This document shows, one piece after another, positions 454-64,000 of a DNA stretch of 64,000 nucleotides. A program made the position numbers and the translations under genes. Within the stretch, counting starts at the first letter, position 1. Every line of letters starts with the position of its first letter. Origin of the DNA: Candidatus Thalassarchaeum betae (GTDB lineage Archaea > Thermoplasmatota > Poseidoniia > Poseidoniales > Thalassarchaeaceae); the NCBI GenBank assembly GCA_003193925.1, contig PSPG01000001.1, forward strand, positions 32,001 through 96,000, given 5' to 3'. The notes beneath the pieces were generated by a model. The model had not been told where the DNA came from. It saw only the letters and a program-made list of their open reading frames with translations, and made no database searches.

Positions 454-1053
454 ATGGACACCGAGTTGCTGGTGGCCACGCTCGTCTTCATCATACCAAT
501 GTGCTTCACACCCGGACCGAACAACGTACTGTGCGCGGCCCACGGCTCTCAGCATGGCCTGAGAGGAACCATGCCTCTGATAACTGGCATGGCGATAGGC
601 TGGTCCTCTCTAGGGCTTTTCGTCGGAGCTGCTACGGTCTTCATCGAGGAGAACGAGTCGTTCTTCAGCCTGCTCACATACGTCGGTGCCGCCTACATCG
701 CATATCTGGCATACAAGATCGCGACAGCCAAGCCGATTACCGACGAGGAACAGTCGAGTGAGCGTCTTGGTGTGATAACCGGAATCGTTCTACAGGTCGT
801 CAATGGCAAGGCATGGATCCACTTCCTCGTTCTTATGACGGCATTCGGAAGCCTGTTCGGGGCGGGCTTTGAGGGCAAGGTGGCCCTTGTTCTCCTCAAC
901 TTGCTCTTCGGTCTGCCCGCGGTGACGTGCTGGGCCGCCTTCGGCACTCTCTTGAGGCGCGCTTTCAGCAATCCCTCCTCAGCGAGGAATCTGAATCGTG
1001 CGATGGGGCTCTCCCTGTTCGCAGTGGCGGCCTGGATTGTCCTCTCGCATTAG
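454..1053 (+). CDS. LysE/RhtB family amino-acid exporter
   Basis: N-terminal TPGPNN motif, GAAYIAYLAYK, NGKAW, about 6 TM helices, 199 aa. Confidence 0.88.
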   Translation: MDTELLVATLVFIIPMCFTPGPNNVLCAAHGSQHGLRGTMPLITGMAIGWSSLGLFVGAATVFIEENESFFSLLTYVGAAYIAYLAYKIATAKPITDEEQSSERLGVITGIVLQVVNGKAWIHFLVLMTAFGSLFGAGFEGKVALVLLNLLFGLPAVTCWAAFGTLLRRAFSNPSSARNLNRAMGLSLFAVAAWIVLSH

Positions 1054-2754
1054 TCAGGGCATCGGGCCCGCACCGCTGGCTTCGGCGAGCCACCTCATGG
1101 CAGCCTCGTAGTCCTGAGCCGCATCGAGGTTATCCTTCAGCAACAGGTCCTCCGCTGCGTCCCACAGTGCTCGCATGGCCGGCACCCAGTCACCGCCCTT
1201 GTCCCGACTGGCTTCGTCGAAGCGCCAGGCATCCGACTCCGTCCTCTCGTGAACGTTGAGCCAAGCCCAGCCCATCGCCATCTCAAGGCCCTTGCCTTTG
1301 CGCGCTTTGGATACAGTCGCAGCGACTCCGTTCTCGACGGCATGGCGCACCAGAGCATCAGCGAAGTCGAGAGGCGAAGGCAAGGCCCCGATCTCCCATG
1401 GCAGCCTCTCTAGGCGCTTGGCTGTGGACAGGCTCTTGCCGAGTTCGCGCAGGAAGGCTCCGAAGCCCTGCTTGCGCTGCATTTGCTTGGCATGTATCGC
1501 TTCGGCTTCGCTTCCGGATATCCCGTAGATTTCATCCAGTATGGTCAGACCGTGGTCCGGCCACAACGCGACCAGATTGGGGTGACAGGCTGAATCCTCG
1601 AGACGAATCACATCCTCATCCAGTACCAGTACCAGTCCATCTGTCCTGATGTGGATCCCGGTGTTGAGTGAGTCCAGCACGCAGGCTATGCCCCTCCTCT
1701 CCTCCGAGTTCCCGGCCATGAGCTCTAGGAAACCGTCGCGTCCGTCTTCAGCGAACCAATGCGTGCCGAGGACGTAACCGTCGCTTATCGAGTTCAGTAT
1801 GCTGCTTCTGCAAGCCACTGCCAGAGCAGCGTCGTCGAAGGACATCCGAAGCCAAGCAGTGAGGACCTCCTCGAGATTCTCCTCGCCCTCCGCGGGTAGG
1901 GCGCGTCCCTCCGGCCACCCCTTTGGCTTCCACATCCACTCCGCTTCCGCCACATCGCTCAGGCGTGGCGGCATCATACCCATCGCCACGCTTTGGGCGA
2001 ACTGCTCCTCGCTCTTGGCCAGAGCAGCCGGCGTCAGGCCGACTACAGTGCCATTGAGAAATTCGAGGCGCAGCCACCCAGAGTCAGTCAACTCCCGTTC
2101 GAGGACAATAGACTCCTCGAGTCCCTTGCTCCACCTGACATCACCACCAGAGAGTTCTATGGAGGCATTGTCCAGACTCCAGTCGACCCACTCCTCTGGC
2201 GGATCCGGCTCACTGCCTGTGAATACGAAGCCACCCTCCCAGGAGAAGAACCACTGTCCTGATTTGGCGTGCTCGTCCCATACCAAGAGGCGCATCTTGG
2301 AGTGTGTGTGGTTCTGGATTCCAGCTAGGTGGCTCTGCTTCCCGTTGCCCCTGCGGATGTAACTAGATACACCGTAGAGCGGATTCTTGAACACGGCAAC
2401 AGTTGAACGGCCCTCCTCGCTGGCGGCCAGCAGACTGCCGGCCAGAGCGCGGCAGACGGGGTCCCCGCCTTTCTTCGCCATGCGCTTGCGAAGCCAACGG
2501 GGGTCGTTGCGCTTGGCAGCAACTGCGGGGAGTTCCTTCAGGGTCTTGCCCATCTTATCCTTCGAGAAGAAAGAACCGTCAATAGTACCCCTAATCTCAG
2601 GCACGAACACCTCGGGGTCGTCTAGGAGCTCCTGGAGATTTCTGCCCAGCCGCTGCTGGATTTCCTTGGAGGCCTGCTTGATACCGCGCACGCGGATTTT
2701 CTTGCGGCGGGTCCTATCCCCCGGGAAACGAACCTCTGCCGGTGGTTTCGCCAT
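1054..2754 (-). CDS. Hypothetical protein (~566 aa, soluble, basic N-terminus)
   Basis: Long ORF with host-like codon use; start moved to ATG 2754 (MAKPPAEVRF) to avoid overlapping dph5; no recognisable motif. Confidence 0.75.
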   Translation of the reverse strand: MAKPPAEVRFPGDRTRRKKIRVRGIKQASKEIQQRLGRNLQELLDDPEVFVPEIRGTIDGSFFSKDKMGKTLKELPAVAAKRNDPRWLRKRMAKKGGDPVCRALAGSLLAASEEGRSTVAVFKNPLYGVSSYIRRGNGKQSHLAGIQNHTHSKMRLLVWDEHAKSGQWFFSWEGGFVFTGSEPDPPEEWVDWSLDNASIELSGGDVRWSKGLEESIVLERELTDSGWLRLEFLNGTVVGLTPAALAKSEEQFAQSVAMGMMPPRLSDVAEAEWMWKPKGWPEGRALPAEGEENLEEVLTAWLRMSFDDAALAVACRSSILNSISDGYVLGTHWFAEDGRDGFLELMAGNSEERRGIACVLDSLNTGIHIRTDGLVLVLDEDVIRLEDSACHPNLVALWPDHGLTILDEIYGISGSEAEAIHAKQMQRKQGFGAFLRELGKSLSTAKRLERLPWEIGALPSPLDFADALVRHAVENGVAATVSKARKGKGLEMAMGWAWLNVHERTESDAWRFDEASRDKGGDWVPAMRALWDAAEDLLLKDNLDAAQDYEAAMRWLAEASGAGPMP

Positions 2755-2803
2755 CGTATCCCTGCCTTCGCGAGCCGTGGCCCCCGTTTGAGTGCGTCGA
2801 CCT

Positions 2804-3631
2804 TCACCCACCGATTCTGCGGCGCTCGAAGGCCTCTTCCTCCAATCCGTTGAACTCAGTTGGGAGTACGAACGCATGGACCGTCCCCCCCCTCAACTCG
2901 GCCAGATCCCCCAGATGCCCGGACAGCACGCGCTCCTGCTTTGTGCCTAGGTCACTGAGAAGAATCCCGCTCCACTCCCTGACGGGGCGCTCCAGACTGG
3001 CCCGGAGCCCGTCTTCTCCCCCCTCCAGCCGCTCGACCATCTTCTCGAGCAGCCCGACCGCTTCGGCCGGGCTCATGGGTCGGGGCCGCTCGACGCCCAT
3101 CCCAGTGGGGTCGAGATCGAGGAGCACGAGCGAGTGCAGACCACTCTCGAAGTTGTTGCACAGTATCTCCAGAGGCGATGTCGGCAGGTAGTCCCCGACT
3201 GCGAAGGGCAGCGTGACCTGCCTGCCGAAGCGATACGATTGCATTCCCGAGAGGGAGACCGCGAGAGCGGTCACACTCAATCCTGGAATGACATAGAAAC
3301 CGATGCCCTGCTCGGCACATCTGGCTTCCAGATCGATGTGCGTGGTGGCTTGCATCGGGTCACCGACGACGAGCAGTGCCACAGCCTTGCTGCGCGCGGA
3401 GGCAAGCAGCTCCGCAGGCTTCTCCACCTTATCTCGCATGAGTCTCTCCCAAGGGCCAATCACGGATTCGAGGCGCTCCTCCTCCCTCTGGGGCAGGACC
3501 GCTGTGTAACCCTCGAGGTATCGCTTGGAGCAGCCCCGAGCCACGCTGCGGGCACGCTCGGTCATGTGGTCGAGGTCACCCGGTCCGATGCCGATCAGCC
3601 AGAGGCCGGGAGCGGGCTCATCGTCCGTCAT
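2804..3631 (-). CDS. dph5: Diphthine synthase
   Basis: LWLIGIGPG, YLEGYT, LLVVGDPMQATTH, SGMQSYRFGRQVTLPF, GLHSLVLLD motifs; start at ATG 3631. Confidence 0.92.
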   Translation of the reverse strand: MTDDEPAPGLWLIGIGPGDLDHMTERARSVARGCSKRYLEGYTAVLPQREEERLESVIGPWERLMRDKVEKPAELLASARSKAVALLVVGDPMQATTHIDLEARCAEQGIGFYVIPGLSVTALAVSLSGMQSYRFGRQVTLPFAVGDYLPTSPLEILCNNFESGLHSLVLLDLDPTGMGVERPRPMSPAEAVGLLEKMVERLEGGEDGLRASLERPVREWSGILLSDLGTKQERVLSGHLGDLAELRGGTVHAFVLPTEFNGLEEEAFERRRIGG

Positions 3632-3659
3632 GGTGAAGCGGGCTGCCCCGCTGCCCGTC

Positions 3660-11421: not shown

Positions 11422-11550
11422 GCAAGCGTTCCACTGCACGCGCTCTCGCGTGCGCATGTGACGGCTGGGGGTCGAGGTTAAGTATCGCAGGAAGGCGAAC
11501 AAGGACGATACAGCGGCGTTGCCGGAGGCTATGAAATGGAAACTGGAAAG

Positions 11551-14500
11551 ATGAGAAACAGCATAACGATGGTTCTTCTGATGATGATGAGCACGTTCGC
11601 GGTGATGGAATTCCCAAAAGCCGAGGCGAGCGAGGTCGTGCTGACCGACGCCATACAGATCGTCAACGGCGGCTCCGCCAATGACAAAATGGTCACCGCA
11701 GATGCCGATTCCATGGGCAATGTGCACATCGTGTGGAGCCGCAACACCCAGCACCTCTGGTACCAGATGCACAATCCGAGAGGGGACGTGCTGATTCTAG
11801 AGACCCAGATCTCCAACCCCGGAGCGCACCGAGCATGGCATCCCGACATCAGAGTCGATCACGACGACAACGTACACATCACCTGGACGGACAAGGCCGG
11901 TCAGTGGACGATCTTCTACACCATGCTCGATCCCTCGCAGGACGACCAGGACGGTGATTCCGCTGTGGACGCAGTGATAACGATCATCGACGACTTCGAG
12001 GTCTCGGTGCATACCCAGAACAGGGACTGGCCCGCCATTGACGTCGATTCCGAGAACAACGCCCACATCGTCTGGGAGGATTCGTTCGAGCCATTGGACA
12101 AGTACTACCAGCAGCCTCAGATTTACTACTCGATGATCGAGCCAGACCTGCAGTCCCGCGAAGCAATCGTGGCTGTCGGCGAGACGCTACTCACCCCAAT
12201 CATCGGCCACAAGGGCCACCCCGACGTGGCCGTGGACGCCGATGACTTCGTCCAGATCGTCTGGGACGATACCAGAGGCGGAAAGGTCGAGATCGTGGCA
12301 CCTATCGACACCTCCGGCTCGATGAACACCGAGTGGGCCGACATGTGCGTCGTCTTCTATGGCGGCTACTTCGCCAGCGGCGGCTTCTTCGAGGGCCTCA
12401 AGCCGATGCTTTTGAGAGCCAACATGACAGTCTACGAGACCCTCTACGCTCTCAGCGGCAACTGGCCGGCCGCTGCCACCAGCGGCAATTGCGCCGCTGC
12501 TTACCAGACCGGAGGCTCCGGTGGCCAGGGACCGCGTTCGACCCCCCTCGGGCTGGTTCCCGGAGACGACTCCGGCGGAATCAGGGAGCTGACTGAGGTA
12601 GTCTACAACGGCGGCGCAGTCAATCTGCCTCAGGATGGTGGCTACTACAGCGAATTCTGGGGCCCCGGCTCCAATTGGGCTTGTTTGTCGTGGCGAGACG
12701 CCCAAGGCAACGTCCCAGGCAATCCTCCGACCCAGTTGGATCACCACTGGAATCCCAACGCGACCAAGATCGTCATCCCGATCTCCGACGAGGGCCCGTA
12801 CGGCGGCGACCCCGCGCAGCAGTCAGATGACACCCAGAGCATCAACGAGGCTCACGACGCCTGCGTCATCGCCGGCATCATCCCGGTCCCACTGCTCGCT
12901 GCCGGATTCGGGGCTGGCTCCACAAACGTCGGCTCCCACATGATGGACCTCGCCCAGTGCCCGAACGGCTTCATCAGCCTAGGCACGAGGACATGCCCCG
13001 GGACCAACACGCGTCTGACCGATGCCGAGGGGATGATGTACAGCTTCCCGACGTCCTCTTCGAACTCGGCCGAGTTGCAGCTGATGGTCGAAGCCATGGT
13101 CTACCTGTCCACGAACAACTCGCGAGAGATATTCATGACAGTTCTAGACCCCCTCTCCCTCCTGCAGAACCCGCCTCCGACTTGGCAGAAGGGCGACTCG
13201 GGAACCTTCGTCGACTACACTGCTGACAGGTACATCGAGGACATCGGCCCATCCATCGACGGCCTCGGCTACGGCAACCTGGTTGTTGTCAACGACACCA
13301 GAATCACCCTCAACGACGCCTACAGCCTCCATCCGGCGATTTCGGTCGACACCTCCGGCAACACCCACCTCGCTTGGATGGACGGGCGCGCCTACGGCTT
13401 CGACATCGACGTCAATTACGAAATCTACTACACCCGTCTGCGACTGAGGGGAGCGGGCGAGTGGGATGGCGCCCCGGACGGACTGCCTTCCTACGGAATC
13501 AAGCAGATTGTCGATTCGGCGGTCTCCGAAGTCGAGGGAATCGACGGGATCCCGACGGACCTGCCGTTCGGAGCCAATTCGCACATGCCTGCGATAATCA
13601 CGGACTCGTTCGACAACGTGCACCTCTCGTGGCTGGACAATTACAATGGGACTCAGGGTGAGACCGTCGTCTACACTAAGCTAAACCACACCAACGACGA
13701 CTACCCCGAAGGCTTCCCGCTGAACTCACTCGCAGCCGGCATCCTCGACCCGTGGGAGATCATCCCCATCACCGAGTGGCAGTCTGACAAACTGGGCCCG
13801 AACTCTCCGGCCGTCCCCGACCTCGGCCAGCCCCCGGCATTCGCCAATGACCTAGGCAGCGGGGCCCACATCGCTTGGTCAGACACCAACAAGTGCAGCG
13901 AAATAAGCAACGGCGGCTCCTACACGCTGTGCTACGTACACGTCCTGACCGGTCTCGTCGAGGTCGCCCTCGACGAGACCGAGACCTACTACCACACTAT
14001 CGAGCCCGGCGAGCAGACTCTGTACAACATGACGATCTCGAACCCGACCCCCGGGCCGGCAGAACTGGTCGCCGACACGTTCACCGTGACCCTGGAGGGG
14101 GTCCCTAACAACTGGACCGCTACTCTGTTCTTCACCACGAATCACACACCGATATTCGACTCTACTCCGGTATTCCTCCGAGGAGGTGACGTGGTTCCGA
14201 TGTACATGCGTGTCCGCGCTCCGTCAATCTATCAGGCGCACGGCGACGAGTTGGCAACGATTACGGTGTCTGCAGTGTCCTACAAGGACCCAGCCATACG
14301 AGACGAGAGGCTCACGCTGACGCTGATGGACGTGGTACATGGCATCAACCTCGATACCAGCCACTTCCAGGTCGATGTCGAACAGGGGCAGTCCGCGATA
14401 TTCTCGATTACGGTGACGAATACAGGGAACGTGTACGATACCTTCGCCTTCTACGATCCATCCACTTTAGAGGGTCAGGTCGAATGGGCCCTGCCATTCG

Positions 14501-16617: not shown

Positions 16618-16620
16618 GAC

Positions 16621-17447: not shown

Positions 17448-17741
17448 ATGGGAACCGGGAAGACGGTAATAGTCACAGTACTAGTCATCGCAGGATTGCT
17501 GATGCTGGCTTTGTCCTTTGTTGCTTCAATAATAGTTGATAACATTGATCAGAGGATTGCAGATGGATGCGAAGACGAGGCAGGCACAATTGGAGAAGCT
17601 CTCAATCTTGATGAGGGCCAGTGTCAAGACGGTCGCGACATGAGAGACAAAATTGATCCCTTTGGTCAGATGATTGGCTATCTAGGCGCGGCAGTTCTTG
17701 TGATATCAGTGATCATGGTCGCAATCAGGAAGAAGCAGTAA
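17448..17741 (+). CDS. Small 2-TM membrane protein with low GC
   Basis: 97-aa ORF with two hydrophobic helices around an acidic loop containing two Cys; AT-rich relative to its flanks. Confidence 0.7.
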   Translation: MGTGKTVIVTVLVIAGLLMLALSFVASIIVDNIDQRIADGCEDEAGTIGEALNLDEGQCQDGRDMRDKIDPFGQMIGYLGAAVLVISVIMVAIRKKQ

Positions 17742-42808: not shown

Positions 42809-42881
42809 ACATCAACACATCGCCTTGCTCTGCAAGGCGCGGGGGGCGAGAACTCAAGGCTTCACAGCCGCAGCACCGGCT

Positions 42882-49700: not shown

Positions 49701-52700
49701 CGGACGACGACTGCGGCGCCCCCGTCGCGGGCAATATGGAACCGCAGTGCATGTTCAATGACACTGCTGACCTAGATGACGACTTCGATGGCATTTACGA
49801 CCATTGGGACATCGACGACGACAACGACGGCATCTGGGACTACTTCGAGGTCGACAGCAACGACGACTTCGACGACGACGCAAACACCGAGCCTCCGGGA
49901 GCGTTCTTCATCGGCTTCAATTGCGAAGATGGCGACGATGACGGTACCGACACCGACCCCGACGGAGACGGCTGGTATCAGGCGGTCTGGGACAAGGGCG
50001 TACTAGGACAGGCCATGCTGCATCCGAAGTACTACGACGTCGACAACGACAATGACGGCGTGCCCGACGGGGAGGACCCCGACGACGACAACAACGGCCT
50101 CGATGACGAGCAGCAGGAGCTCCTGTGCTTCGTCGGTGAAGAGCAGTCCCCGTGGGACCACGACAACGACGGCGTCCTCGATTGGGTCGATGACGACTGG
50201 GACGGCGACGGCATCGTCAATGTCCTTGAACTAGCCTCTGCGACACCGTGGATTACCCCTTGGGATCACGACAACGACGGACTGCGGGACGACGTCGACC
50301 TCGACGACGACTCTGATGGCATGTTGGACGTGGACGAGATCATGCTGTGGCCCTCGAGGTTCGGAAGCGAGTCGACCAACCCATGGGACCACGACGACTT
50401 CGGTGGCGGTGAGGGCATTGCCAACCCATCCGACCCCAACACCGGCCCGGATGCGATCGATCAGGATGATGACAGCGACAACCGCACCGACCTCGACTGG
50501 GACCACCTCGAGGAGGGCTGGACTTCGGACAACTGCACCAACGGAGCAGAGTCCAGCGACTGGGACCACGACAACGACTGCATCCTCGACGAGGATGACA
50601 AGATTCCGACTAGAATCTCCTTGACCGTCCCGCCTATCCTCTGGCTGGACAATCGGTACGCTGCCAGATTCAACGGGACCGTGAACTGGCTCGACCCCGA
50701 GCAAGGGGTGTTCACACCAGCCCCTGACCTCCCCGTGCAAGTGCACATCGAATGGGCGAGGAACGGTACCTCAGCTGTCGAGACCATCGACGTGCTGACG
50801 AATCAGGATGGGGTCTTCGTGGTCGGGCAGTTCCTGTTCCCCGAGGACATACACGTCGGTGACAACACGACATACATCGTGTACGCTGAAGTGACCGAGA
50901 TGTTCGTCCACGACGGCGCGTCGACGGAGCCAGTGCCCGTCGAAGTCCGTGCCAACACCACTATCGACTACGTCGCGTGGACCTACTTCCGAAGCGACGA
51001 GCAACCGCTCTTCGTAGATTACAAGGTCCACTACACGGCTGACTGGGAGCGCGGCATCTTCGGCAACAGACTGTCTCACGCCCCGGTCTCGTTCACCATC
51101 AGCGGAGGCCTCTTCGGCAACACCACCCACCCAACCGTGTTCGACGGCTACGGCTACGGCTACAGAGCCGATTCCGGTGGATGGGTATCACTCACCTTCG
51201 TCCAGAGCAGTGGCACTCAGGGAGTCTGGAAGCAGGTCCAATGGAACTCGTCGATGGACAACGGGCCGGGCAAGGTGCCTGGGGGCTACGAGGAGATCGT
51301 CTGGGACAACTTCTCCAAGACCCACAGCGTGTTAGACCGCTACAACTACACTAACACGAGCCTGCCGACCGGAGACTACGCCTTCGTCGGCTTCTCCCGT
51401 CCCGACTTGGGCGCCGAATGGCCCTGGCCTTTCCTCGAGGGAGAGAGGACCGACAGCTTCGGCATCCGCTCCATGCATCGGATGTACGTTGAGGCGGACA
51501 TCATCACGCCGTCCATCCGCCCGGTCTACTTCTGGGACAGCACGCAGTTCACAGGCTCCTCCTTCGGAGCGTGGCGAGCCATGTTCCACGGACCATCGCT
51601 GGTCAATGCCGGTCTCGACTACACAGACGTCAGCCTCGGCAAGCCGTACGCGATGCTTTGGGACGGGTCACCAGCCGGCCTGACTGGCGAGGCAGCCCGG
51701 CTCAGGCCGTTCATCAGCTCCAACGGCACACACTGGTTCATCTCGATGCAGAACGGAGGCGACTTCAACGTGCCACCGTGCGGGCCTGTCAACCCGTTGG
51801 ATCCTAACAGCGATGTGCGCTGCGAGATCGTCCCGGAGATGTTCACAGGTGAGACGTACCGTGTCATCGGCACCGTGTGGAACCGCACGATGACCGCTTG
51901 GCCGCACGACCCGATGGCCCTGCAGGTCGACGTCGACCACAACGGCGTTTTCGCCGGCTCCTCCGAGACCGGTTACGCCCGAGTGCCTCAGATGGTCAAT
52001 GGCGAGGCACGGTTCGACTACAACTGGACCTGGTACTCGCAGTACGCCGCCGGCGTCTTCGGCATCCGGGCCGACTTCACCAACTCGAACTACTACTTCA
52101 CTGGAAACCAGACATCAGTGCTGGCTCCGACAGGAGCATACGTCAACGTCTCAGTGATCGGGACCACCGACTTCCAGCTAAACAACATCCCGCGTCTCTA
52201 TCGCGGTCAGAACACGACCATCGAGGCGCGGCTAATCGACAACGCGTACCAACCGGTGCGCGACGCCCCGGTCAATTACACCTGGTCGGCGGATGGTACC
52301 AGCGACATCACCGTCACCGACCACAATGGCGTGTTCGCGGTCAACCTGACCATCGGCGAGCTGCACGATCTGGGCAACTTCACTCTGAGTTACTCGTATC
52401 CGGGAGACCCCTTCCACCAAGGCAGCTCCTCCGAGATCTACCTGTGGGTTGTCTCGAGGACGCTGATCTCGCTGCAGAGCGCGACCTCGGGCTCCATGTC
52501 GAGCGGTGACATCTGGGAGTTCTCGGCCCAAGTGACCGATGACAACCGGACCCCGAACCCCACAGTGTTCGACCCGGGTCAGGCCTTGGACGGCTGCGGT
52601 GAGAACGGTGGCGAGGTGCTCATCATCTTCGAGGGCACCGACTTCGAGGACCGCACCCATCGTCAGATAGTCGAGGCGACGTGTCCGAGCGCCGGCTCGA

Positions 52701-54709
52701 TACACCACGACATCACGCTCGACCCGCAGTTGTTGCGTGACGACCCCGAGTCCTTCCTGCCGGACGGCTTCGGACCGGTCAACGTGATTCTGAGATTTGG
52801 GGAGAACCTGCCCCACGAGGGATGCGAACTCCTGGATGACGACATGCTGCGGACTTCCGGGGCGTGGGACCCGTGTACCCAGATAATCAACAGCGAGCAC
52901 TATCGCAAGGTGCTGCAGTTCAACGCGCAGGGATTCTACCTCATAGGCCGCACCAACTTGGTCGTGGACGACCAAATCGTCTACACATCCGAGATTGACC
53001 CAACCACGGGTCAGCCAATCGAGAAGCCGATGATGGTCACCGGGCAGCTGCTCGACGAGCTGGGCAGCAACCTGTCTTACAGGGCCATCCGAGTCGAATA
53101 CCAGATGCTCAACATGGACATGGGCAGCCAGGTCTGCATACCCGGAACCACCAATGGCGACGGATTCTTCGAGATCATCTGCCCGCTCTCCGGTGTCGAA
53201 GCGGGACAGGCCATGGTGACGATATCGTACGACCCGTACGAGAGTCTCGACAACTGGCGTTACAGAGCAACGAACATCACCAAGATCTTCCCGGTGTTCT
53301 CGAACTCCACCATGCTGATCCAGGAGGTAGGTCCGTTCCGAACCGATGTGGACACCTACTCCTTCGCAAACGGCTCGATCTTCCCGGTCCTGTACCTCAA
53401 GGAGTCCTTCCACATCAACGCCTTGCTGACCCAGACCAACGGCAACCCGATTGGCGGCAAGTGCCTGAACATTTACCTCGACCCCATGACTAACACGCGC
53501 CCGATCGCCACTACGATCACGATGGATGGCACAGGTGAGGTCGGGTGGTTCTCGGGCGACCCCGAGGACAACCCGAGCCGGCGAGGGGTCGAGCCCAACG
53601 GCGAACAACTGGAAGGCTTCAGGACGGTGCGCGTGGCCTACGAGCCCAACAAGGAGCTGCCCGGAGGCTGCCGCGCCGAGACCACGCCAGTGGTCAACGG
53701 CTCGTTCATGGACATCGAGGTGCTCGTGCGCAGCCGCGTCGACATCCTGCTGAAGGACCACTGGGCCAGTTCTGTGGGCTACCAGCCAGGTGACTCGATC
53801 ACCGGCGCGGTTTCGATCCTGAGGGACCGTCTGGACCTGTCGGTCGAGGGCGAGACGGTGATATTCACCTTCCAGTACTGGAACGGCACAGGCTGGGTGA
53901 CCAACGATGTCGAGTACGCCGTGACCAACGAGCAGGGAACTGCCAACTTCAGTTACGAGTACTCGGGCGAGGACATACCTGGCGAAATCGAGTGCGATGC
54001 AGGAGGCCCCTGCGCGCAGAGCGGCAGATGGCGGGTACTGGTGCACTTCCAAGAGTCGTCATTCTTCCAAGAGGAGTTCCTCAACAGCACCCCGATCATC
54101 TTCCTCGGAGAGCCCATTGTCACTCAGAGGCAGAGTTTCTTCACCATGCGTGTGATGATTGTTTTGGGAGTCGCCCTGGCTTTCACCGCCCTCATCGGCG
54201 TCATCATGTACCGCAACTACACCGAGCGCCGGCGCATCGAGATCATCCGCGGGATACTGACGGACTCGCTGATGTCGCTCAAGGCCTCGAACGACTACAT
54301 CCAGACCATCTTCAACTGCTACAAGGACCTGGTGAGGTTCTTCAGGTCCAGAGGCGCCATGAAGAAGGTCTACGAGACCACTCGAGAGTTCGAGGACGCA
54401 ATCAACTCGATGCTGGGCGGAATCGCTCCGCCCGAGGACCTCGGCGAACTCTTCTCGATATTCGAGGAGGCGCGCTACTCCGACCATGAGATAGGTGCGG
54501 ACCAGCGTGACAGGGCCATCGTCGCTCTGCAGGCAATCGTCAACCACCTGACCTCTGCTCTGGGCGACAGCATGCTGAGCAGGTCGTACGTTGACGAGTC
54601 GACCCTGTACGGCGCCGTGATTAAGGCCGGAGAGTTCGTCGACTCGGAGGGCCAGACCAGGATTGCAGGCATCGACGAGGACAGCCCGGACGATGGCTTC
54701 CGAATCTGA
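46727..54709 (+). CDS. Giant surface protein: thrombospondin type-3-like Ca-binding repeats with an inserted cupredoxin, Ig-like stalk, TM helix, DUF4129-like cytoplasmic domain
   Basis: N-terminal hydrophobic helix; dozens of DxDNDG/DHDNDG repeats; HTVT...YSCLLHPTM; TM helix; YETTREF...FEEARYSDH. Confidence 0.9.
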   Translation: MDETSTRTMRDRRKNNSAIAMVLLMLMSAQLYSFQDFERDDPEESEWGAVPQRTAYQQMNQASGPMSGDSQGQPAAGFAWDQVSFTDPRYHDPASFFGKVSDPSILNLDAGYGFFLEQTRTQDHDNDGIDDLNDLDDDNDGINDLLERFDGCYGTDPFDHDNDGILDEFDWDDDSDGILEGPIDYSQGTDPRNVSADRYVEPSTVHPWTGTPVGTGYLVDQNPMDHDNDGITDEDTDGTGRGSYDEDDDNDGRIDQFKWPCDFDGDGLQDYFDLDDDNDGVADLWDEHPWDATKTGNITATAPLWEGWVVWSAGATTHNVNIVSGGYISSTLNINAGDTVVWTNTDTVDHTVTHSGTTFDSNPISPGGTFSYTFTTAGTYNYSCLLHPTMTGQVVVTSSGTTANVYSHFVGGVDYVQRETMWHPRNQSFTMIIDGDLDGDGIPNFLDPDDDNDGTPDSADTDDDNDGLLDMYDVDDDNDGIPDTCHQIDTNNDGVGDYPIPYTRIEVPGIDCEMDYDRDLDDDRYRPIDQDYDLVWDWLDPDMGGTALPDNPLGGPAFDASDIPFDLDNDGLLNEEDPFMISTWDEVQTWNCPSVDNPNPVNSHENCVLMRKSYTGNNDWDGDGINNWEDVDDDNDGILDWLDLDPDCDFDDDNDLHQLNGSMYRDDGPNDIDTDIDGDGLPNDVDWDDDNDGIPDYYDPDDGNCGIVDSDSTDPFSSYYYSHGDGDPIDGSDDSDMYADDTVHTFYWNQSWMFNPFNLENNFVLDYNGYVNDATGVVTGKVPEMYWYVIMKWSPYNGGNYFDIDMDGDSLVNGIDVDQDGDGLPDWWDQDEGNDGVLDVDDIKMGGSFDEGTCGSTLFLVVYQIALSDHACGLDYAWLYGWPLQRATQTQQNIYTSPYSSRPDPEHDEGAYNGSNSQGQWTCNKNCFWFDFFGNQDIGPSSAVTYNQIKDNRDLWIAYVGINYGLFSWNSDGNGNMFPDERADLLNNDVDPDDDCGAPVAGNMEPQCMFNDTADLDDDFDGIYDHWDIDDDNDGIWDYFEVDSNDDFDDDANTEPPGAFFIGFNCEDGDDDGTDTDPDGDGWYQAVWDKGVLGQAMLHPKYYDVDNDNDGVPDGEDPDDDNNGLDDEQQELLCFVGEEQSPWDHDNDGVLDWVDDDWDGDGIVNVLELASATPWITPWDHDNDGLRDDVDLDDDSDGMLDVDEIMLWPSRFGSESTNPWDHDDFGGGEGIANPSDPNTGPDAIDQDDDSDNRTDLDWDHLEEGWTSDNCTNGAESSDWDHDNDCILDEDDKIPTRISLTVPPILWLDNRYAARFNGTVNWLDPEQGVFTPAPDLPVQVHIEWARNGTSAVETIDVLTNQDGVFVVGQFLFPEDIHVGDNTTYIVYAEVTEMFVHDGASTEPVPVEVRANTTIDYVAWTYFRSDEQPLFVDYKVHYTADWERGIFGNRLSHAPVSFTISGGLFGNTTHPTVFDGYGYGYRADSGGWVSLTFVQSSGTQGVWKQVQWNSSMDNGPGKVPGGYEEIVWDNFSKTHSVLDRYNYTNTSLPTGDYAFVGFSRPDLGAEWPWPFLEGERTDSFGIRSMHRMYVEADIITPSIRPVYFWDSTQFTGSSFGAWRAMFHGPSLVNAGLDYTDVSLGKPYAMLWDGSPAGLTGEAARLRPFISSNGTHWFISMQNGGDFNVPPCGPVNPLDPNSDVRCEIVPEMFTGETYRVIGTVWNRTMTAWPHDPMALQVDVDHNGVFAGSSETGYARVPQMVNGEARFDYNWTWYSQYAAGVFGIRADFTNSNYYFTGNQTSVLAPTGAYVNVSVIGTTDFQLNNIPRLYRGQNTTIEARLIDNAYQPVRDAPVNYTWSADGTSDITVTDHNGVFAVNLTIGELHDLGNFTLSYSYPGDPFHQGSSSEIYLWVVSRTLISLQSATSGSMSSGDIWEFSAQVTDDNRTPNPTVFDPGQALDGCGENGGEVLIIFEGTDFEDRTHRQIVEATCPSAGSIHHDITLDPQLLRDDPESFLPDGFGPVNVILRFGENLPHEGCELLDDDMLRTSGAWDPCTQIINSEHYRKVLQFNAQGFYLIGRTNLVVDDQIVYTSEIDPTTGQPIEKPMMVTGQLLDELGSNLSYRAIRVEYQMLNMDMGSQVCIPGTTNGDGFFEIICPLSGVEAGQAMVTISYDPYESLDNWRYRATNITKIFPVFSNSTMLIQEVGPFRTDVDTYSFANGSIFPVLYLKESFHINALLTQTNGNPIGGKCLNIYLDPMTNTRPIATTITMDGTGEVGWFSGDPEDNPSRRGVEPNGEQLEGFRTVRVAYEPNKELPGGCRAETTPVVNGSFMDIEVLVRSRVDILLKDHWASSVGYQPGDSITGAVSILRDRLDLSVEGETVIFTFQYWNGTGWVTNDVEYAVTNEQGTANFSYEYSGEDIPGEIECDAGGPCAQSGRWRVLVHFQESSFFQEEFLNSTPIIFLGEPIVTQRQSFFTMRVMIVLGVALAFTALIGVIMYRNYTERRRIEIIRGILTDSLMSLKASNDYIQTIFNCYKDLVRFFRSRGAMKKVYETTREFEDAINSMLGGIAPPEDLGELFSIFEEARYSDHEIGADQRDRAIVALQAIVNHLTSALGDSMLSRSYVDESTLYGAVIKAGEFVDSEGQTRIAGIDEDSPDDGFRI

Positions 54710-56568: not shown

Positions 56569-58686
56569 ATGGTAGCGGAGCGGCCGAGCGAAGCCGGCGA
56601 GCAGGCTCTGGTAGAGTGGCTCGCCGGGCAGATATCACATCACTCACATCTCTACTACAACGAGGCGAGTCCGGAGATCTCCGATGCAGAGTTCGACGAG
56701 CTGTGGGATGAGCTGAGGAGCCTGTCTCCCGAGCACCCCCAACTGCTGAGGGTCGGCACAGACCCGCCTCCGGGCTCGGTCAAGGTGAATCACCTGTTTC
56801 CCATGCTCAGCCTCGACAAGGCGAACACCGAGGAAGAGGTAGCCCATTTCATCTCCGAGACCACGGCCCAAGGGAGGAGGTTCGTCTGCCAGCCTAAGGT
56901 AGACGGCTCCGCTCTCTCACTCGAGTATCGCCGGGGGCGCCTCATCAGGGCCGCGACTCGCGGTAGCGGAACCCGTGGTGAGGACATCACCGCGAACGTC
57001 CGCAGGATACCGAACGTCGCAGAGGCCATTGGCTGGGACGGGGATTGCCACGTTCGCGGCGAGGCTGTGATGCCCCTGGCCACTTTCCGAGAGAAGTACG
57101 CCGAGATCGCACCCAACCCCCGTAACCTAGCGGCAGGCTCACTCAGGCAGAAGCACGCAGAGGCCGGCAAGGGGCGCGCCGAGGACCTCGTGTTCCTCGC
57201 GTACGGAGCCGAGTTCCCAGCTGGTGCCTCGAGGCACCCAGACAGCCCCGAGCCTCCGGCTTTCGAATACGACTCGGAAGTGATATCATGGCTGCAGAGC
57301 ATAGGGGTGGAGGTCGCAGGCAACGAAGTCACCGGCGGTGCGGATGACGACTCCACCTGCTCCGCTGTCCTCTCGGTAGTCCAAAATTGGACTGATAGGC
57401 GCGAGAGCGCGAATTGGGAGATCGATGGCATAGTGGTCAAGTTGGACCGTCTCGACAAGCGCGAGCTCCTCGGTATGACCGCTCACCATCCGAGATGGGC
57501 TCTCGCCTGGAAGTTCCCTCCCGAGGAAGCGACGACCGTGCTGATGGACGTGGCCTGGCAGACCGGCAGGACGGGGAACGTGACCCCCGTCTCCAGAGTC
57601 GCTCCGGTGATGGTTTCCGGAGTAACGGTGGAGAACACCACCCTGCACAACAGGGGGGAGGTTGAACGGCTGGGGATTCAGGTCGGCGACAAGGTCAGAG
57701 TGGTTCGCAGGGGCGATGTCATCCCGAAGATAATCGAGGTTCTGGGACCCGCAGCAGCCTCGGATCTGGAGGGCAGGCGGCACTCCGACGGCACCCCTTT
57801 CGCAGAACTGCTACCAAGGAGGATGGAGGTGACTGTACCGACCGAGTGCCCACGCTGCGGGACCACACTGATCGAGGACGGCGCTTTCATCCGCTGCACC
57901 AACCTAGACTGCCCATCACGGCTCGAGAGAGCAATCCTCTACTGGTGCAGGTACCTAGAGATGGACGGCGTAGGTGAGAAGCTGGCCGAGCAGATGTGCG
58001 AAACAGGACTCGTGACGACGCTCGCCGATCTGTACAAGCTCGAGCGCGAGGACATCGAGGGCCTCGAGAGGATGGCTGAGAAGTCTGCGAGCAATGTGAT
58101 CGACCAACTGGAGGGCAGCAGGAGAATGCCACTGAGTACCTTCATCGCAGCGCTCGGACTTCCCAGGATAGGCCCTGAATTCGCTTCCGTGATAGCAACC
58201 GAGGCCGGCAGCCTCGACGAGCTCCTGGACCTGGTCTCGAAGATGGACGAGGACCCGGGAGTCGACGAGTCGGGCAAACCGAACAAGCACAATCCTTCGA
58301 TGAGCAGACTCATCGCGATCGAAGGCGTCGGCGAGACGGTAGCCCGACTGCTCTTGGAGGGACTCGCAACGCGCTCCGAGATTGTAGCGGAACTGAGCGA
58401 GGAACTCGATATCACAGAGGAGTCCCCCAAGCGGGAGGCAGGCCCGCTACAGGGACAGACCTTCTGCATCACAGGCACCCTGAGCCGCCCCAGGAAGGAG
58501 ACCGCTCTGTCGATTAAGGCCGAGGGCGGCAAGGTGGTCTCCTCCGTCTCAGGCAAGTTGGACTTCTTAGTCGCAGGGGCATCAGCGGGCTCCAAGCTGG
58601 AAAAGGCGAACAGGCTCGGCGTCGGTGTCCTGAACGAGGCCGAACTCGCCGAGATGTTGCGTCCTGAGCCCTCGGAGCAGCACTAG
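56569..58686 (+). CDS. ligA: NAD+-dependent DNA ligase
   Basis: YYN..PEISDAEFD, PMLSLD, KVDG adenylation motif, TRG.G..GEDIT, NPRN.AAGSLRQ, DGIVVK, TGRTG, C4 zinc finger, HhH, BRCT. Confidence 0.96.
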   Translation: MVAERPSEAGEQALVEWLAGQISHHSHLYYNEASPEISDAEFDELWDELRSLSPEHPQLLRVGTDPPPGSVKVNHLFPMLSLDKANTEEEVAHFISETTAQGRRFVCQPKVDGSALSLEYRRGRLIRAATRGSGTRGEDITANVRRIPNVAEAIGWDGDCHVRGEAVMPLATFREKYAEIAPNPRNLAAGSLRQKHAEAGKGRAEDLVFLAYGAEFPAGASRHPDSPEPPAFEYDSEVISWLQSIGVEVAGNEVTGGADDDSTCSAVLSVVQNWTDRRESANWEIDGIVVKLDRLDKRELLGMTAHHPRWALAWKFPPEEATTVLMDVAWQTGRTGNVTPVSRVAPVMVSGVTVENTTLHNRGEVERLGIQVGDKVRVVRRGDVIPKIIEVLGPAAASDLEGRRHSDGTPFAELLPRRMEVTVPTECPRCGTTLIEDGAFIRCTNLDCPSRLERAILYWCRYLEMDGVGEKLAEQMCETGLVTTLADLYKLEREDIEGLERMAEKSASNVIDQLEGSRRMPLSTFIAALGLPRIGPEFASVIATEAGSLDELLDLVSKMDEDPGVDESGKPNKHNPSMSRLIAIEGVGETVARLLLEGLATRSEIVAELSEELDITEESPKREAGPLQGQTFCITGTLSRPRKETALSIKAEGGKVVSSVSGKLDFLVAGASAGSKLEKANRLGVGVLNEAELAEMLRPEPSEQH

Positions 58687-58703
58687 AGTGTGCTCGCGGA
58701 GTT

Positions 58704-59504
58704 CTAGCCGTACATCGAACTGGGAGCGCCGCCGCTCTCACTCGGCGGATTGAGGTGCACTGCCATCATCTCGCGGATCTCTCCTTCTATCCTCTGGGCC
58801 TCGGCCAACAGTGGCTCGGGGTCAAGATGCACCGCAGGAAGCAGGTTGTCCAAGCACTCGATAATTCGAGCCGCCGCACGTGCGTCAGGAAGGCTGCCGC
58901 CGATATCGCCGTCCGATTCCGCTAGAATCGCCATGGCATCGATCTCTCTCCTTCTGCACTCTCCCATCATCACTCCGGTGATGCCCCCGACCACCCCCTG
59001 CTTGAGCAGAGGCACGCCGAGACCGGCCAGAGTCTCGTGCGAGGCGTCTGTCGAGCCTATTCCGAGCATCGTCTCCTCAGACTCGTCATCGTCGAAGATC
59101 GAGTGCTGTTGGCCGATTCCTTGGGCGTAGGAGTCGATTAGAATAATCGCGCCCACGCCGTTCTCCGAGCACCAGTCCAGCAGGGTGGTCGCGAGGGGCA
59201 GGTTCAGCTCTGGAATGACCTGTATCTCGGAGGCAATCAGAACAATCTTGTCGCAGCGCTCCATGTTGCAGAGCGGCTCGCCGGAGTAGAATCTCATCGG
59301 AGGAAGTGGCTTCCCATCCTGAACTAGGCAGACCGGGGGGAGCTTAGGGTGTCTGACGCCGCCCACCAGTTCCAAGTCCAGTTTGTCGACGAGGTAATGC
59401 GCCACGATACTGCTGACGAAGCCAATTGACGGGAAGCAACTGACGACCAGAGCGCCGGTGGCGTTCAAATCAGGGTCGACCTCTACCTTCGGTGGCTCCG
59501 ACAT
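58704..59504 (-). CDS. Proteasome assembly chaperone (PAC2/Pba family)
   Basis: FPSIGFVSSI...LVDKL, PMRFY, PDARAAA, L..EAQRIE; C-terminal HbYX motif (MYG). Confidence 0.9.
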   Translation of the reverse strand: MSEPPKVEVDPDLNATGALVVSCFPSIGFVSSIVAHYLVDKLDLELVGGVRHPKLPPVCLVQDGKPLPPMRFYSGEPLCNMERCDKIVLIASEIQVIPELNLPLATTLLDWCSENGVGAIILIDSYAQGIGQQHSIFDDDESEETMLGIGSTDASHETLAGLGVPLLKQGVVGGITGVMMGECRRREIDAMAILAESDGDIGGSLPDARAAARIIECLDNLLPAVHLDPEPLLAEAQRIEGEIREMMAVHLNPPSESGGAPSSMYG

Positions 59505-59575
59505 CGACGGGGAGTGTACCTACGATGCTGTTAACCGTTGTCACACCCGGTCCCTCCCTAGGGAGGGGAAGTAGG

Positions 59576-60730
59576 GTGGAAGACGGCTTCAAGGCTCATC
59601 AGTTGTCACCCTCTTCGTGGAATAGGTTCGAGGAGTGCCCACGCAAGTACTGGCTGTCCCGCCAACGGCTGCCGCGCAAGGCCAGCATGCCGGCTGCCAT
59701 GGGCACTGCCGTGCACAACTCGGTCGAGGACCTCTGTAATCTCGACCTCTCGGACAAGGACGACTCCGAGGACGGTTGGCTCCCTCCCACAGCCAAAGCA
59801 GTTCTCGACCGTCACTGGACACTCGAGCGCGACATCTTCCTCGCCACGCCCCGCCATCCTAGATGGAAGGACGAGATGATCACCAAGGCCCACGATGGAC
59901 TCGTCGGCGCACTCAACATCCTTTTCTCCAAGTCCAACATGGGCAAGGTGGGCCTTTCCGAGGTCTCCGTGGCTCAGTGGAAGCAGGTCCAGAGCATCGT
60001 CCTCGCCAACGAAGGCACACTGGTGTCCGAGTGCGGCCGTCTAATGGGTCGCTTGGACCTACTGGTAGCCGACCTCGACGAGAACGGCGACTCGAAGGGC
60101 TGGATTGTCGCCGACCTGAAGACCGGCAACCCACCGAAGCAGAAACTCAACGAGAAGGTGAGTCGCCAACTCAGGTTCTACCGCGACCTGCTGAAGGCAA
60201 TCAATCCCGACCACCCCCCGGTTTACGCCGAAGGCTGGTACTCCTCCAACCAGACCATCCACCGAGCCGATGGACCTTCGGTCCTCGACGAGGCCTTCGC
60301 AGCTTGGGAAGGCATGAGGCCCACCGAGGAGCCTCTCGAGGGCACCCCGGGGGATGTGCAGTGCGGCTTCTGCGAGTGGAAGGCCTGGTGTCCAATCTGG
60401 TGGGCTGCTCGCAGGGACGGCACCCTCTCGCCGGGCAGCATGTTCCGCGACGAGGTTGTGCGAGCAGTCAGGTTCGACCGGGAGTCGGGGGCTGCTCTGT
60501 TCGAGCGCATGCCACCCCTCGGCGACGAGGGCGAACTGGCCCATTCCGACCATCGCTTCGGTGCCATACTTCGCGATCAGGCGCTCGACCAGATGCGCGA
60601 ACTGATGGACTCCGGTTACGAGGGAGCCATTTTCCTCGGCAGCGTCCGAGTCGACGGCAAGATCGTGCATTTGGGGGACTGGTGCGAGGTCCTGCCGTGG
60701 ACGCCGCTACTCAAGTCAATACGAGAGTGA
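59576..60730 (+). CDS. PD-(D/E)XK nuclease, Cas4/AddB-like with Fe-S Cys motif and C-terminal extension
   Basis: LSPS...CPRKY, GTAVH, GRLDL, ADLKTG, QLRFY, CGFCEWKAWC. Confidence 0.87.
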   Translation: MEDGFKAHQLSPSSWNRFEECPRKYWLSRQRLPRKASMPAAMGTAVHNSVEDLCNLDLSDKDDSEDGWLPPTAKAVLDRHWTLERDIFLATPRHPRWKDEMITKAHDGLVGALNILFSKSNMGKVGLSEVSVAQWKQVQSIVLANEGTLVSECGRLMGRLDLLVADLDENGDSKGWIVADLKTGNPPKQKLNEKVSRQLRFYRDLLKAINPDHPPVYAEGWYSSNQTIHRADGPSVLDEAFAAWEGMRPTEEPLEGTPGDVQCGFCEWKAWCPIWWAARRDGTLSPGSMFRDEVVRAVRFDRESGAALFERMPPLGDEGELAHSDHRFGAILRDQALDQMRELMDSGYEGAIFLGSVRVDGKIVHLGDWCEVLPWTPLLKSIRE

Positions 60731-61294
60731 GTCGAGAAAGTCGTCAACAGGCCCCTTGAACTTCCTCGGATAAGCCTGCATGATCCTCCACAGGAGCAGC
60801 AGGGTCGCACCCGCGTCGACGTCGGCCTGGTGGCTTCTGTCCATTCCGATTCCGAAGCGCTCGCACAAGTGCCCCAACGTGTGCCGCCCGGGTATGCCGA
60901 GCCTCCTCGCCAGAACCAGCGTGTCGATGATGGCGCGCGGGCGCGGGGTTTCCACACCCGCGCGCATGCACTCCATCTCGAGGAACCTCCAGTCGAACTG
61001 CACGACGTTGTGCCCGACTATGACGGAGTCCTCCATCATCATCGCGATGTCTGCCACGTGCTGACTGAACTCACCCGCACCCCTCACGTCATCGTCGGTG
61101 ATGCCATGCACCCGCGTGGTGTTTGGATCGATGGGGACTCTGGGGTTGACCAACGACTGCAGATTGATGTGACTCCCGTCCACATCACTACCGATCAGCG
61201 CGAACTGCACTATCCTGTCCGACCTGTGATCGAAACCCGTGGTCTCTAGGTCGAATCCGAGAACGCGATAACCACTCAGCATTCCTTCAGACAT
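60716..61294 (-). CDS. DEDDh 3'-5' exonuclease (DnaQ-like)
   Basis: FDLETTG, VHGIT, VGHNVVQFD, IDTL, HQADVDA. Confidence 0.93.
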   Translation of the reverse strand: MSEGMLSGYRVLGFDLETTGFDHRSDRIVQFALIGSDVDGSHINLQSLVNPRVPIDPNTTRVHGITDDDVRGAGEFSQHVADIAMMMEDSVIVGHNVVQFDWRFLEMECMRAGVETPRPRAIIDTLVLARRLGIPGRHTLGHLCERFGIGMDRSHQADVDAGATLLLLWRIMQAYPRKFKGPVDDFLDSLSY

Positions 61295-61366
61295 GGCCAC
61301 CCCTGCGTGGCACCGTCCATGAACTATCGTAAACCTCGCAGCACCGAGCCGGTTTCCAACAGCCCT

Positions 61367-63099: not shown

Positions 63100-63162
63100 C
63101 CCCGCACTCAGCGCATAGCATAGCGACCGATTCAATTAGGTGAGGTCCTTGGCCGCGTCACT

Positions 63163-63239
63163 GGACCCATAGTGTAGCCTGGATATCACTCCAGCCTCCG
63201 GAGCTGGAAACCCGTGTTCGAATCGCGGTGGGTCCGCCA
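63163..63239 (+). tRNA. tRNA-Arg(CCG)
   Basis: Same body as the upstream tRNA; anticodon arm ccagc-ctCCGga-gctgg. Confidence 0.95.
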
Positions 63240-63282
63240 CTCCGCTCACAGCGTTCAAGCACCTGATGCCCGACCCGGCTGC

Positions 63283-63699
63283 ATGACCTTCACCTCGGCG
63301 CGCCGGGTCGACTTCCCGATGATCGACATGGCTGGCATCATCTACTACCCCCAGTTCTGGGATTTAGCGCACAGGTTCTACGAGGAATCCTGGGAGCACT
63401 CCTGCGGGATGCACTACGACGTCATCCTGAACGAGCACAGGATTGGCTTCCCCCTGGTTCACAGCGATGCCCAGTTCCTCCATCCGCTGAGTTACGGCGA
63501 CACCGTTCATTGCACGATCACCGTGCCACGCATCGGCAACACCTCGGTGACGTGGCGCTACGAGTTCCGCAACCAGGACGACGTTCTGTGCTGGACCTCG
63601 GACCAGGTCACCGTCTGCGTGGACATGGAGGACGTCAAGCAGAAGATTCCAGTCCCAGATTGGATGCGCGAGGGACTCGCGAAACTCGCACCCCAGTGA
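63283..63699 (+). CDS. 4HBT/YbgC-like acyl-CoA thioesterase
   Basis: IDMAGIIYYPQF, PLVH..AQFLHPLSYGD, IGNTS. Confidence 0.9.
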   Translation: MTFTSARRVDFPMIDMAGIIYYPQFWDLAHRFYEESWEHSCGMHYDVILNEHRIGFPLVHSDAQFLHPLSYGDTVHCTITVPRIGNTSVTWRYEFRNQDDVLCWTSDQVTVCVDMEDVKQKIPVPDWMREGLAKLAPQ

Positions 63700-64000
63700 C
63701 TACCGCCTCGGCCAATTCTTGGCGAGCGCCTTGCGAAGCGAGTCATCCATCTTGGCATCCCACCAGTTCGCATCGCGCCAGACCGCGTACTTGCCGCGGA
63801 TTCCCCGCATGTCAGCACCGTCGAGGCGCGCTCCTTGCAGGTTGGAGAACGATAGCTTCGCCTTGACCATCCTAGCCCCACGCAGGTCAGCACCGTCTAG
63901 AGCCGCCTTCATCAGATTCGCACCCCTCAATGACGCATTTCGCAGGTCCGCACCTGAGAGGTTCGCTGCCTCAAGGTCAGATCCGTCGAGCACCGCCCTG
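63700..64000 (-). CDS. Pentapeptide repeat protein (5' end outside the window)
   Basis: Tandem A[DN]LxG pentapeptides: ANLSG ADLRN ASLRG ANLMK AALDG ADLRG. Confidence 0.92.
   Translation of the reverse strand, partial: RAVLDGSDLEAANLSGADLRNASLRGANLMKAALDGADLRGARMVKAKLSFSNLQGARLDGADMRGIRGKYAVWRDANWWDAKMDDSLRKALAKNWPRR

Follow-up and report, generated by a model that had tools for sequence, protein, structure and literature searches.

Why should genes that face each other so often end at exactly the same point of the chromosome? The question is raised by a stretch of 64,000 nucleotides (nt) from Candidatus Thalassarchaeum betae (contig PSPG01000001.1, positions 32,001 to 96,000; G000:C7:32001-96000), called the window below, in which six of the 11 convergent gene pairs meet stop codon to stop codon with a gap of 0 base pairs (bp). 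These six junctions, along with the spacings of the remaining five pairs (+3, +8, +17, -7, and -15), had been reported in an earlier note made without database searches, here termed the sequence-only reading. It proposed that transcription must end inside the opposite gene at such junctions and offered, as a null explanation, deletion that stops when two stop codons touch. The coordinates and letters of the six zero-gap junctions were reproduced by direct reading and by the list of open reading frames (ORFs), and the other five spacings were recovered from the ORF list and a Markov gene caller. As argued below, the zero-gap spike is very probably the product of genome compaction that halts at the geometry of the stop codons, and it appears to be compaction of the usual kind taken to an extreme rather than a new mechanism.

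To establish how common the arrangement is, we called genes in the whole genome, a metagenome-assembled genome (MAG) of 1.48 Mb in 23 contigs that is 91.8% complete and has a guanine-plus-cytosine (GC) content of ~61%. The gene caller was a self-written, self-trained, 3-periodic Markov program and not Prodigal; the convergent gap is set only by the choice of ORFs and is independent of start codons, and stop positions are fixed by the sequence. A total of 211 convergent pairs were found genome-wide, of which 38 overlap by at least 6 nt, 31 have a gap of -4, 60 a gap of 0, 10 a gap of +1, one a gap of +2, and 71 a gap of +3 or more (four at exactly +3). The median convergent gap is 0, a gap of 0 or less was observed in 129 pairs (61%), and the states 0 and -4 together make up 43% of the pairs. 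The genome-wide histogram that the sequence-only reading had proposed as a check contains the spike: 60 pairs at 0 compare with a mean of 2.6 per bin over +1 to +10 (Poisson P, ~7e-59). Outside the window, 55 of 201 pairs are at 0. Restricting the count to high-scoring genes leaves the spike in place, with 42 of 136 pairs at 0 when both scores are at least 25 and 20 of 78 when both are at least 40. A secondary cluster comprises 18 pairs that overlap by 7 to 10 nt (for example, on contigs C4, C19, and C20). In these pairs the stops have passed each other and lie 1 to 4 nt apart, as in the TCA-nnn-TGA arrangement of seven pairs at -9, and the last one or two residues of each protein are encoded opposite the partner's stop.

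The stop codons themselves prescribe which of these states can exist. As a matter of sequence logic, a forward stop (TAA, TAG, or TGA) and a reverse-complemented stop (TTA, CTA, or TCA) cannot share 1, 2, 3, or 5 bases, and a shared stretch of 4 bases must read YTAR, which requires both stops to be TAA or TAG (TAR). The genome follows this partition throughout: a TGA is present on one or both sides of each of the 60 zero-gap junctions, and the 31 junctions at -4 are TAR/TAR without exception and consist only of the tetramers CTAG (24 cases), CTAA, TTAG, and TTAA. None of the 211 convergent pairs has a gap of -1, -2, -3, or -5. Since TGA accounts for 72% of all stops, 0 is the commonest floor. 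The TAR share of stops amounts to 41% in convergent genes and to 21% in the upstream genes of co-directional pairs (Fisher P, 4e-13), an enrichment that is expected if an overlap of 4 bases locks both stops as TAR, the change of one destroying the other. A preference for the palindrome TGATCA was considered and rejected, as TGA-TCA was found at 28 of the 60 zero-gap junctions against ~34 expected from overall stop usage, which is no excess.

Other gene orientations have shrunk differently. Half of the 215 divergent gaps exceed a median of 129 nt, and only 4 measure 10 nt or less. Co-directional gaps peak at -4 (45 pairs), -1 (27 pairs), and +9 (35 pairs), and a further 18 pairs are at +8. The +9 spacers mostly have the form TGA-GGTGA-nnnn-ATG and the +8 spacers mostly TAG-GTGA-nnnn-ATG, while a G directly follows the stop in 276 of the 600 co-directional pairs with a gap of at least 3 nt (a listed co-directional example from the window is the pair 37620-37889/37894-38394). 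We take GGTGA and GTGA to be a Shine-Dalgarno-like motif, and, judged from the letters, the stop codon at the +9 and +8 spacers appears to double as the first bases of this motif. Each orientation has shrunk to its own functional minimum, onto a cis element where one is needed and to nothing between convergent genes; the genome is small, its spacers are short, and spacers are kept only at cis elements, as is characteristic of streamlining. In the accessible part of the work of Palleja et al. (2009; PMC2784483), spacers likewise shrink to a functional minimum, with the stop shared with the next element, a Shine-Dalgarno sequence. However, their pairs are co-directional, whereas the minimum between convergent genes is no spacer at all.

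We then compared the convergent gaps with those of eight related genomes, using gene calls on samples of 200 to 400 kb. In a genome of the same genus (G017), 10 of 34 convergent pairs are at 0, 8 are at -4, and 5 overlap by at least 6 nt; the corresponding numbers for G077, a 1.3-Mb genome of the same family, are 6, 5, and 4 of 23 pairs. Both genomes have thus collapsed like the present one, whereas the 2.1-Mb genome G021 of the sister genus has not (52 pairs, of which 3 are at 0, 1 is at -4, and 1 is a longer overlap; median gap, 42). The low-GC genomes G076 (1.5 Mb, 39% GC) and G088 (1.5 Mb, 36% GC), both of the same phylum (Thermoplasmatota), accumulate pairs at -4 and among the longer overlaps, with 5 pairs at 0, 15 at -4, and 20 overlapping by at least 6 nt among 71 pairs in the former and 5, 14, and 23 among 78 pairs in the latter. 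In G026 (another family of the order, 2.06 Mb), 7, 2, and 6 of 57 pairs fall into the three classes, and in G081 (same phylum, 55% GC), 5, 0, and 5 of 55 pairs, with a median gap of 46. The last genome, G082, belongs to the same family and has 1.5 Mb; of its 28 pairs, 2 are at 0, 2 are at -4, and 10 overlap by at least 6 nt. These data point to a trend in which convergent spacers have generally collapsed where the sampled genomes are small and the choice between 0 and -4 follows stop-codon usage. The zero-gap spike is strong and reaches beyond the window to the genome as a whole, the genus, and the family.

Orthologous junctions permit the same process to be followed pair by pair. A comparison with G017 retrieved 26 conserved convergent pairs, of which 7 share the zero gap, although the stops differ in 4 of these, and 4 share the -4 state, all of them TAG/TAG. 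Four junctions that are at -4 in G077 (TAR/TAR) are at 0 with a TGA in the present genome, and one shows the reverse. With respect to the 2.1-Mb genome G021, the gap is smaller here in 11 of 11 orthologous pairs. We also inspected two 3' ends across larger sets of relatives. (i) Among 30 loci from relatives, the gap between the cobalamin adenosyltransferase gene and the facing ORF is 0 in 13, -4 in 2, and +1 in 2; the values +2, +4, and +6 occur once each, 7 gaps measure 25 to 116, and 3 loci are not evaluable. (ii) The 3'-end junction of the gene for the termination factor FttA (aCPSF1) was retrieved for 80 loci; 77 species could be evaluated, and 62 of them have a zero gap. According to parsimony on the FttA tree, each of the two stop codons at this junction has changed at least 15 times and the gap at least 7 times. 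In 15 cases the FttA junction is TAR/TAR and still at 0, since the last FttA codon, which is purine ended in every one of them, blocks the YTAR overlap. The zero gap is therefore a long-lived and repeatedly reached state, neither a single frozen ancestral accident nor a tightly held one.

Whether deletion alone suffices was addressed with a toy model in which random sequences undergo substitutions and short insertions and deletions, proteins are held fixed, and stop preferences are taken from co-directional genes. At deletion:insertion ratios of 5, 12, or 25, the model yields a spike at 0 that consists almost purely of TGA-containing pairs (e.g., 132 of 133), and over the range from 5 to 25 it also yields a -4 TAR/TAR class that grows with time, a shoulder at +1, and a raised TAR share. 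No collapse occurs at a ratio of 1. When C-terminal extension by up to 8 residues is free, everything ends in overlaps, and when a single extra residue is tolerated, the proportions at early time points resemble those observed. Every qualitative feature is thus reproduced by the simulation that the sequence-only reading had called for. Taken together, the stop-codon partition, the orthologous junctions, the compact relatives, and the simulation indicate that the null explanation of that reading, deletion stopping when the stops touch, accounts for the spike.

The course of events that we propose starts from DNA between convergent genes that would carry nothing needed by the organism, a member of the streamlined marine Ca. 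Thalassarchaeum lineage (Poseidoniales, MGIIb). Because such a spacer would hold nothing needed, deletions, promoted by mutational bias or by selection for a small genome, could strip it until further loss would harm a protein. Any pair that contains a TGA would then halt at exactly 0, and TAR/TAR pairs could proceed to -4. The most likely route of termination would be an attack by FttA/aCPSF1 on RNA that is not covered by ribosomes past the stop codon, and the resulting antisense 3' ends would overlap.

The statement of the sequence-only reading that no intergenic terminator can exist at the junctions stands for the 129 of 211 pairs that have no spacer. As there is no intergenic room at these pairs, RNA polymerase would have to stop inside the opposite gene. 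The pairs with a gap of 0 or less have 258 gene ends, and a tract of five T (T5) was found within 50 nt downstream of the stop at just one of them (background, 0.001); T4 tracts were found at 2%. Spacers of at least 40 nt contain T5 in 2% of 453 cases, with a T/A ratio of 0.99 and A5 equally rare. Tracts of T5 or longer on the sense strand shortly past the stop, the mark of oligo-U terminators, are thus not a feature of gene ends in this genome, nor was excess RNA structure detected at the junctions (minimum free energy in 60-nt windows, -16.5 versus -17.2 in gene interiors; P, 0.40). The near absence of T5 and the lack of excess structure strengthen the corollary that termination takes place within the partner gene.

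An orthologue of FttA/aCPSF1 with KH, MBL, and beta-CASP domains (TIGR03675) is encoded at G000:C19:121217-123112 and scores 783.6 bits against a cutoff of 580.2. The FttA family is, to our knowledge, universal in archaea, so that its presence does not discriminate between explanations. The closest FttA genes (92% identity) are in records of Candidatus Thalassarchaeum, Thalassarchaeaceae, and Poseidoniales, and the FttA gene itself ends in a zero-gap junction that reads TAA-TCA (C19:121208-123112; junction at C19:121210). A further FttA gene, 88% identical to that of the present archaeon, was found in record PBPC01000068.1, titled "Gemmatimonadetes bacterium"; the corresponding MAG is probably mislabelled or mixed. 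In Methanococcus, 45% of the read-through transcripts that appear upon aCPSF1 depletion enter oppositely encoded units, according to the accessible part of that report (PMC7515710), which implies that aCPSF1 normally guards convergent neighbours. The U-tract has been described, in the part of the literature available to us, as the archaeal intrinsic signal, assisted by aCPSF1 in Methanococcus (PMC8716108). The present organism resembles these model species in encoding the orthologue and differs from them in that their sites have intergenic U-tracts (PMC7515710, PMC8716108), whereas its own convergent junctions lack both the spacer and the U-tract. The idea that FttA/aCPSF1 terminates transcripts within the opposite gene with no U-tract involved has in our judgment an even chance of being correct. 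A bolder version, which we consider rather doubtful, is that the Thalassarchaeaceae, and perhaps all Poseidoniales, gave up cis-encoded terminators entirely. FttA, with Spt4/5, would then be the only terminator and would act on ribosome-free RNA, and the stop codon would be the sole boundary for both translation and transcription. The requirement for a U-tract would have been lost first, enabling the loss of more than 60% of the convergent spacers, and pervasive short antisense 3' overlaps would be normal. A nonexhaustive literature search retrieved nothing on transcription termination in Poseidoniales.

A number of points weigh against compaction and the termination route attached to it. All gap counts, here and in the relatives, come from the home-made caller. 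The eight compared genomes are few, related to one another, and not independent, so that they provide a trend and not a test, and G082, a small member of the family, combines 10 longer overlaps with just 2 zero-gap pairs among 28, showing that the split between states varies. The simulation parameters (ratio, time, and tolerance of C-terminal extension) are free, and the model therefore demonstrates sufficiency and not a fit. At a deletion:insertion ratio of 5, it gives a 0:+1 ratio of ~2.5 to 3:1, compared with the 6:1 observed (60:10), and a match to 6:1 requires a ratio of ~12 or some selection for compactness. At model equilibrium, -4 outnumbers 0, unlike the situation in the genome. In regard to termination, the U-tracts reported to cooperate with aCPSF1 in Methanococcus (PMC8716108, as far as its accessible text goes) are missing here, and CT-rich words are mildly enriched downstream of stops (CTTC, 102 observed versus 58.5 expected).

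This last observation leads to the alternative that survives best, which is nevertheless distinctly unlikely: cis terminators other than U-tracts may have been relocated into the last codons of the partner gene, making the spacers dispensable. Past the stops of collapsed pairs, over a stretch of 80 nt, the words CTTC, TCCTC, and TCTTCC exceed their frequency in antisense gene interiors by a factor of 1.7 to 4, and rho-independent terminators inside convergent overlaps of Escherichia coli are on record in the accessible part of the work of Lillo and Krakauer (PMC2174442). However, the enriched CT-rich words are the reverse complement of C termini rich in GAG and GAA, and the enrichment is probably due to Glu-rich C termini of the partner gene and may mirror protein composition only. 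The rarity of T5 and T4 tracts and the lack of excess structure at the junctions given above also speak against relocated terminators. Concerning the low-GC relatives G076 and G088 (loci L051-L070 and L131-L150), T5 is about twofold more frequent past collapsed junctions (0.34 and 0.45, respectively) than antisense of gene interiors (0.16 and 0.19), which would suit relocation; this surplus could represent terminators embedded in the coding end of the partner or merely Lys-rich C termini. The idea that G081, G076, and G088 use T-tracts and Poseidoniales do not was dropped, since the comparison is confounded by AT-rich promoter DNA and Lys-rich C termini and since T and A tracts are about equally frequent.

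Considerably less probable still is that exact abutment was selected for a function, either because it permits mutual antisense control of the excludon type or because termination through head-on collision of polymerases is most effective when there is no spacer. The persistence of the FttA junction at 0 in most species, despite the many changes in each stop, and an observed 0:+1 ratio steeper than that simulated at a ratio of 5 would be in line with such selection. Yet the partners at zero-gap junctions are not obviously related in function (for example, LysE faces an unknown protein, and NUDIX faces cobalamin adenosyltransferase). Among close relatives, moreover, one and the same junction takes gaps of 0, +1, +2, +6, +25, or +39, and -4 is found if both stops are TAR. 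In addition, 7 gap changes against 30 stop-codon changes at the FttA junction give no sign of a strong constraint on the gap, and the model produces the same pattern without selection on it. That the choice of ORFs or the assembly has created the spike artificially, as a home-made caller and an incomplete MAG in 23 contigs might suggest, is next to inconceivable, given that stop positions are fixed by sequence, that the spike persists in high-scoring genes, that 8 of 14 flanking ORFs have Pfam matches, that orthologous junctions in other assemblies are in the same states, and that two of the junctions are covered indel-free by contigs of other sequencing runs.

Compaction to the stop codons has parallels among known systems. 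Lillo and Krakauer (2007) described convergent stop-stop overlaps of 4 nt, with the sequences CTAA, TTAA, CTAG, and TTAG, in prokaryotes; in the accessible part of this work, convergent overlaps are more common in Archaea, stop usage is altered in convergently overlapping genes, and the terminators of these genes are necessarily placed within coding regions (PMC2174442). The -4 class of the present genome consists of the identical type of tetramer (31 pairs, 24 of them CTAG). That paper, as far as its accessible text goes, differs in treating overlaps and not the 0-nt class, and it does not contain the rule by which pairs with TGA stop at 0 and TAR/TAR pairs reach -4; the frequency observed here is also far higher, with 43% at 0 or -4 and 61% at a gap of 0 or less. 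Excludon-type 3' overlaps (ExcludonFinder, PMC12288877, accessible part) similarly involve genes on opposite strands, each mRNA ending inside the neighbour. Their defining feature, however, is mutually exclusive expression, whereas the likeness here is one of gene arrangement. In the present archaeon, which has no Rho and shows no visible U-tracts, this arrangement is the most frequent state across the entire genome. The arrangement is therefore of a known kind, and what is new is its extreme frequency, the clean rule that separates TGA from TAR, and the near absence of U-tracts. Our literature search, which was not exhaustive, retrieved no paper describing a convergent spike at 0 nt.

Within the window, the Markov caller recovered 10 of the 11 convergent junctions, with gaps, in order, of 0, +3, +8, -7, 0, 0, 0, +17, -15, and 0. 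A Pfam scan covered 15 window proteins, namely, the 14 ORFs flanking the six zero-gap junctions and the +3 junction, plus the DNA ligase; for four of the families matched (LysE, NMO, Cob_adeno_trans, and 4HBT_2), the match extends to fewer than 20 residues from the C terminus. The first zero-gap junction (1051 to 1056, TAG-TCA) joins the gene of a LysE-type translocator (454-1053, plus strand) to a 607-amino-acid (aa) ORF (1054-2877, minus strand). The junction missed by the caller is TAA-TCA at 17739 to 17744, between a 97-aa ORF (17448-17741, plus) and an ORF on the minus strand (17742-18473); the score of the former is below threshold, which fits its description in the sequence-only reading as a compositionally foreign gene that nonetheless follows the zero-gap pattern, and the letters of its junction were confirmed. 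It stays open and stop-free in 18 of 20 genomes of the same genus and in 1 of 4 from other genera of the family. Because of its conservation within the genus, we regard this ORF as a real gene, and the count of six in 11 therefore stands. The zero-gap junction at 39395 to 39400 (TAG-TCA) lies between an NMO-family gene (38297-39397, plus) and an 1,136-aa ORF (39398-42808, minus), and that at 43347 to 43352 (TGA-TCA) lies between 42825-43349 (plus) and 43350-44351 (minus); these are the two spanned, without indels, by contigs from other sequencing runs. At 44862 to 44867 (TGA-TCA), a NUDIX gene (44427-44864, plus) meets the cobalamin adenosyltransferase gene (44865-45473, minus), and at 63697 to 63702 (TGA-CTA), a thioesterase gene (63214-63699, plus) meets a pentapeptide-repeat gene that begins at 63700 on the minus strand and continues past the window.

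The five remaining junctions comprise three short spacers and two overlaps. At 16615 to 16623, the gene of a 1,693-aa CARDB-domain protein (11536-16617, plus) and an ArsR-type helix-turn-helix gene (16621-17358, minus) are separated by 3 nt (TGA-GAC-TCA); the segment reads TGAGACTCA and forms a 4+1+4 inverted repeat. The +8 junction (24948 to 24961) separates 24024-24950 (plus) from a 1,213-aa ORF (24959-28600, minus), and the +17 junction (58684 to 58706) separates the gene of a NAD-dependent DNA ligase (56569-58686, plus) from 58704-59504 (minus). The overlaps measure 7 nt (31817 to 31823, between 30474-31823 on the plus strand and 31817-32155 on the minus strand) and 15 nt (60716 to 60730, between 59492-60730 on the plus strand and 60716-61300 on the minus strand).

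Several features of the genome and window were noted in passing. Contigs C2, C15, and C22, of 4 to 7 kb each, have a GC content of 45 to 46%, compared with ~61% for the genome, and could represent contamination of the bin, mobile DNA, or rRNA fragments. Contig C19 (175 kb) is at 56.8% GC, yet its junction pattern is alike, with 12 of 28 convergent pairs at 0. The DNA ligase of the window is complete and of the bacterial type, with adenylation, OB, zinc-finger, HhH, and BRCT domains. Four very large ORFs are found within 64 kb, namely, the 1,693-aa, 1,213-aa, and 1,136-aa ORFs mentioned above and one of 2,664 aa (46715-54709). The Pfam scan covered two of these; it returned CARDB and immunoglobulin-like matches for the 1,693-aa ORF and no match for the 1,136-aa ORF.

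The convergent junctions of this lineage provide a quantitative example of the limit of compaction for a spacer without function, the end state being set by the identity of the stops, 0 with a TGA and -4 with two TAA or TAG stops. The rule of stop geometry aids in judging 3' ends and small ORFs in compact MAGs, and the lineage is suited to testing termination without cis signals. If termination does occur inside the opposite gene at most convergent pairs, FttA-type termination would be workable even where the U-tract, its reported aid in model methanogens, is absent.

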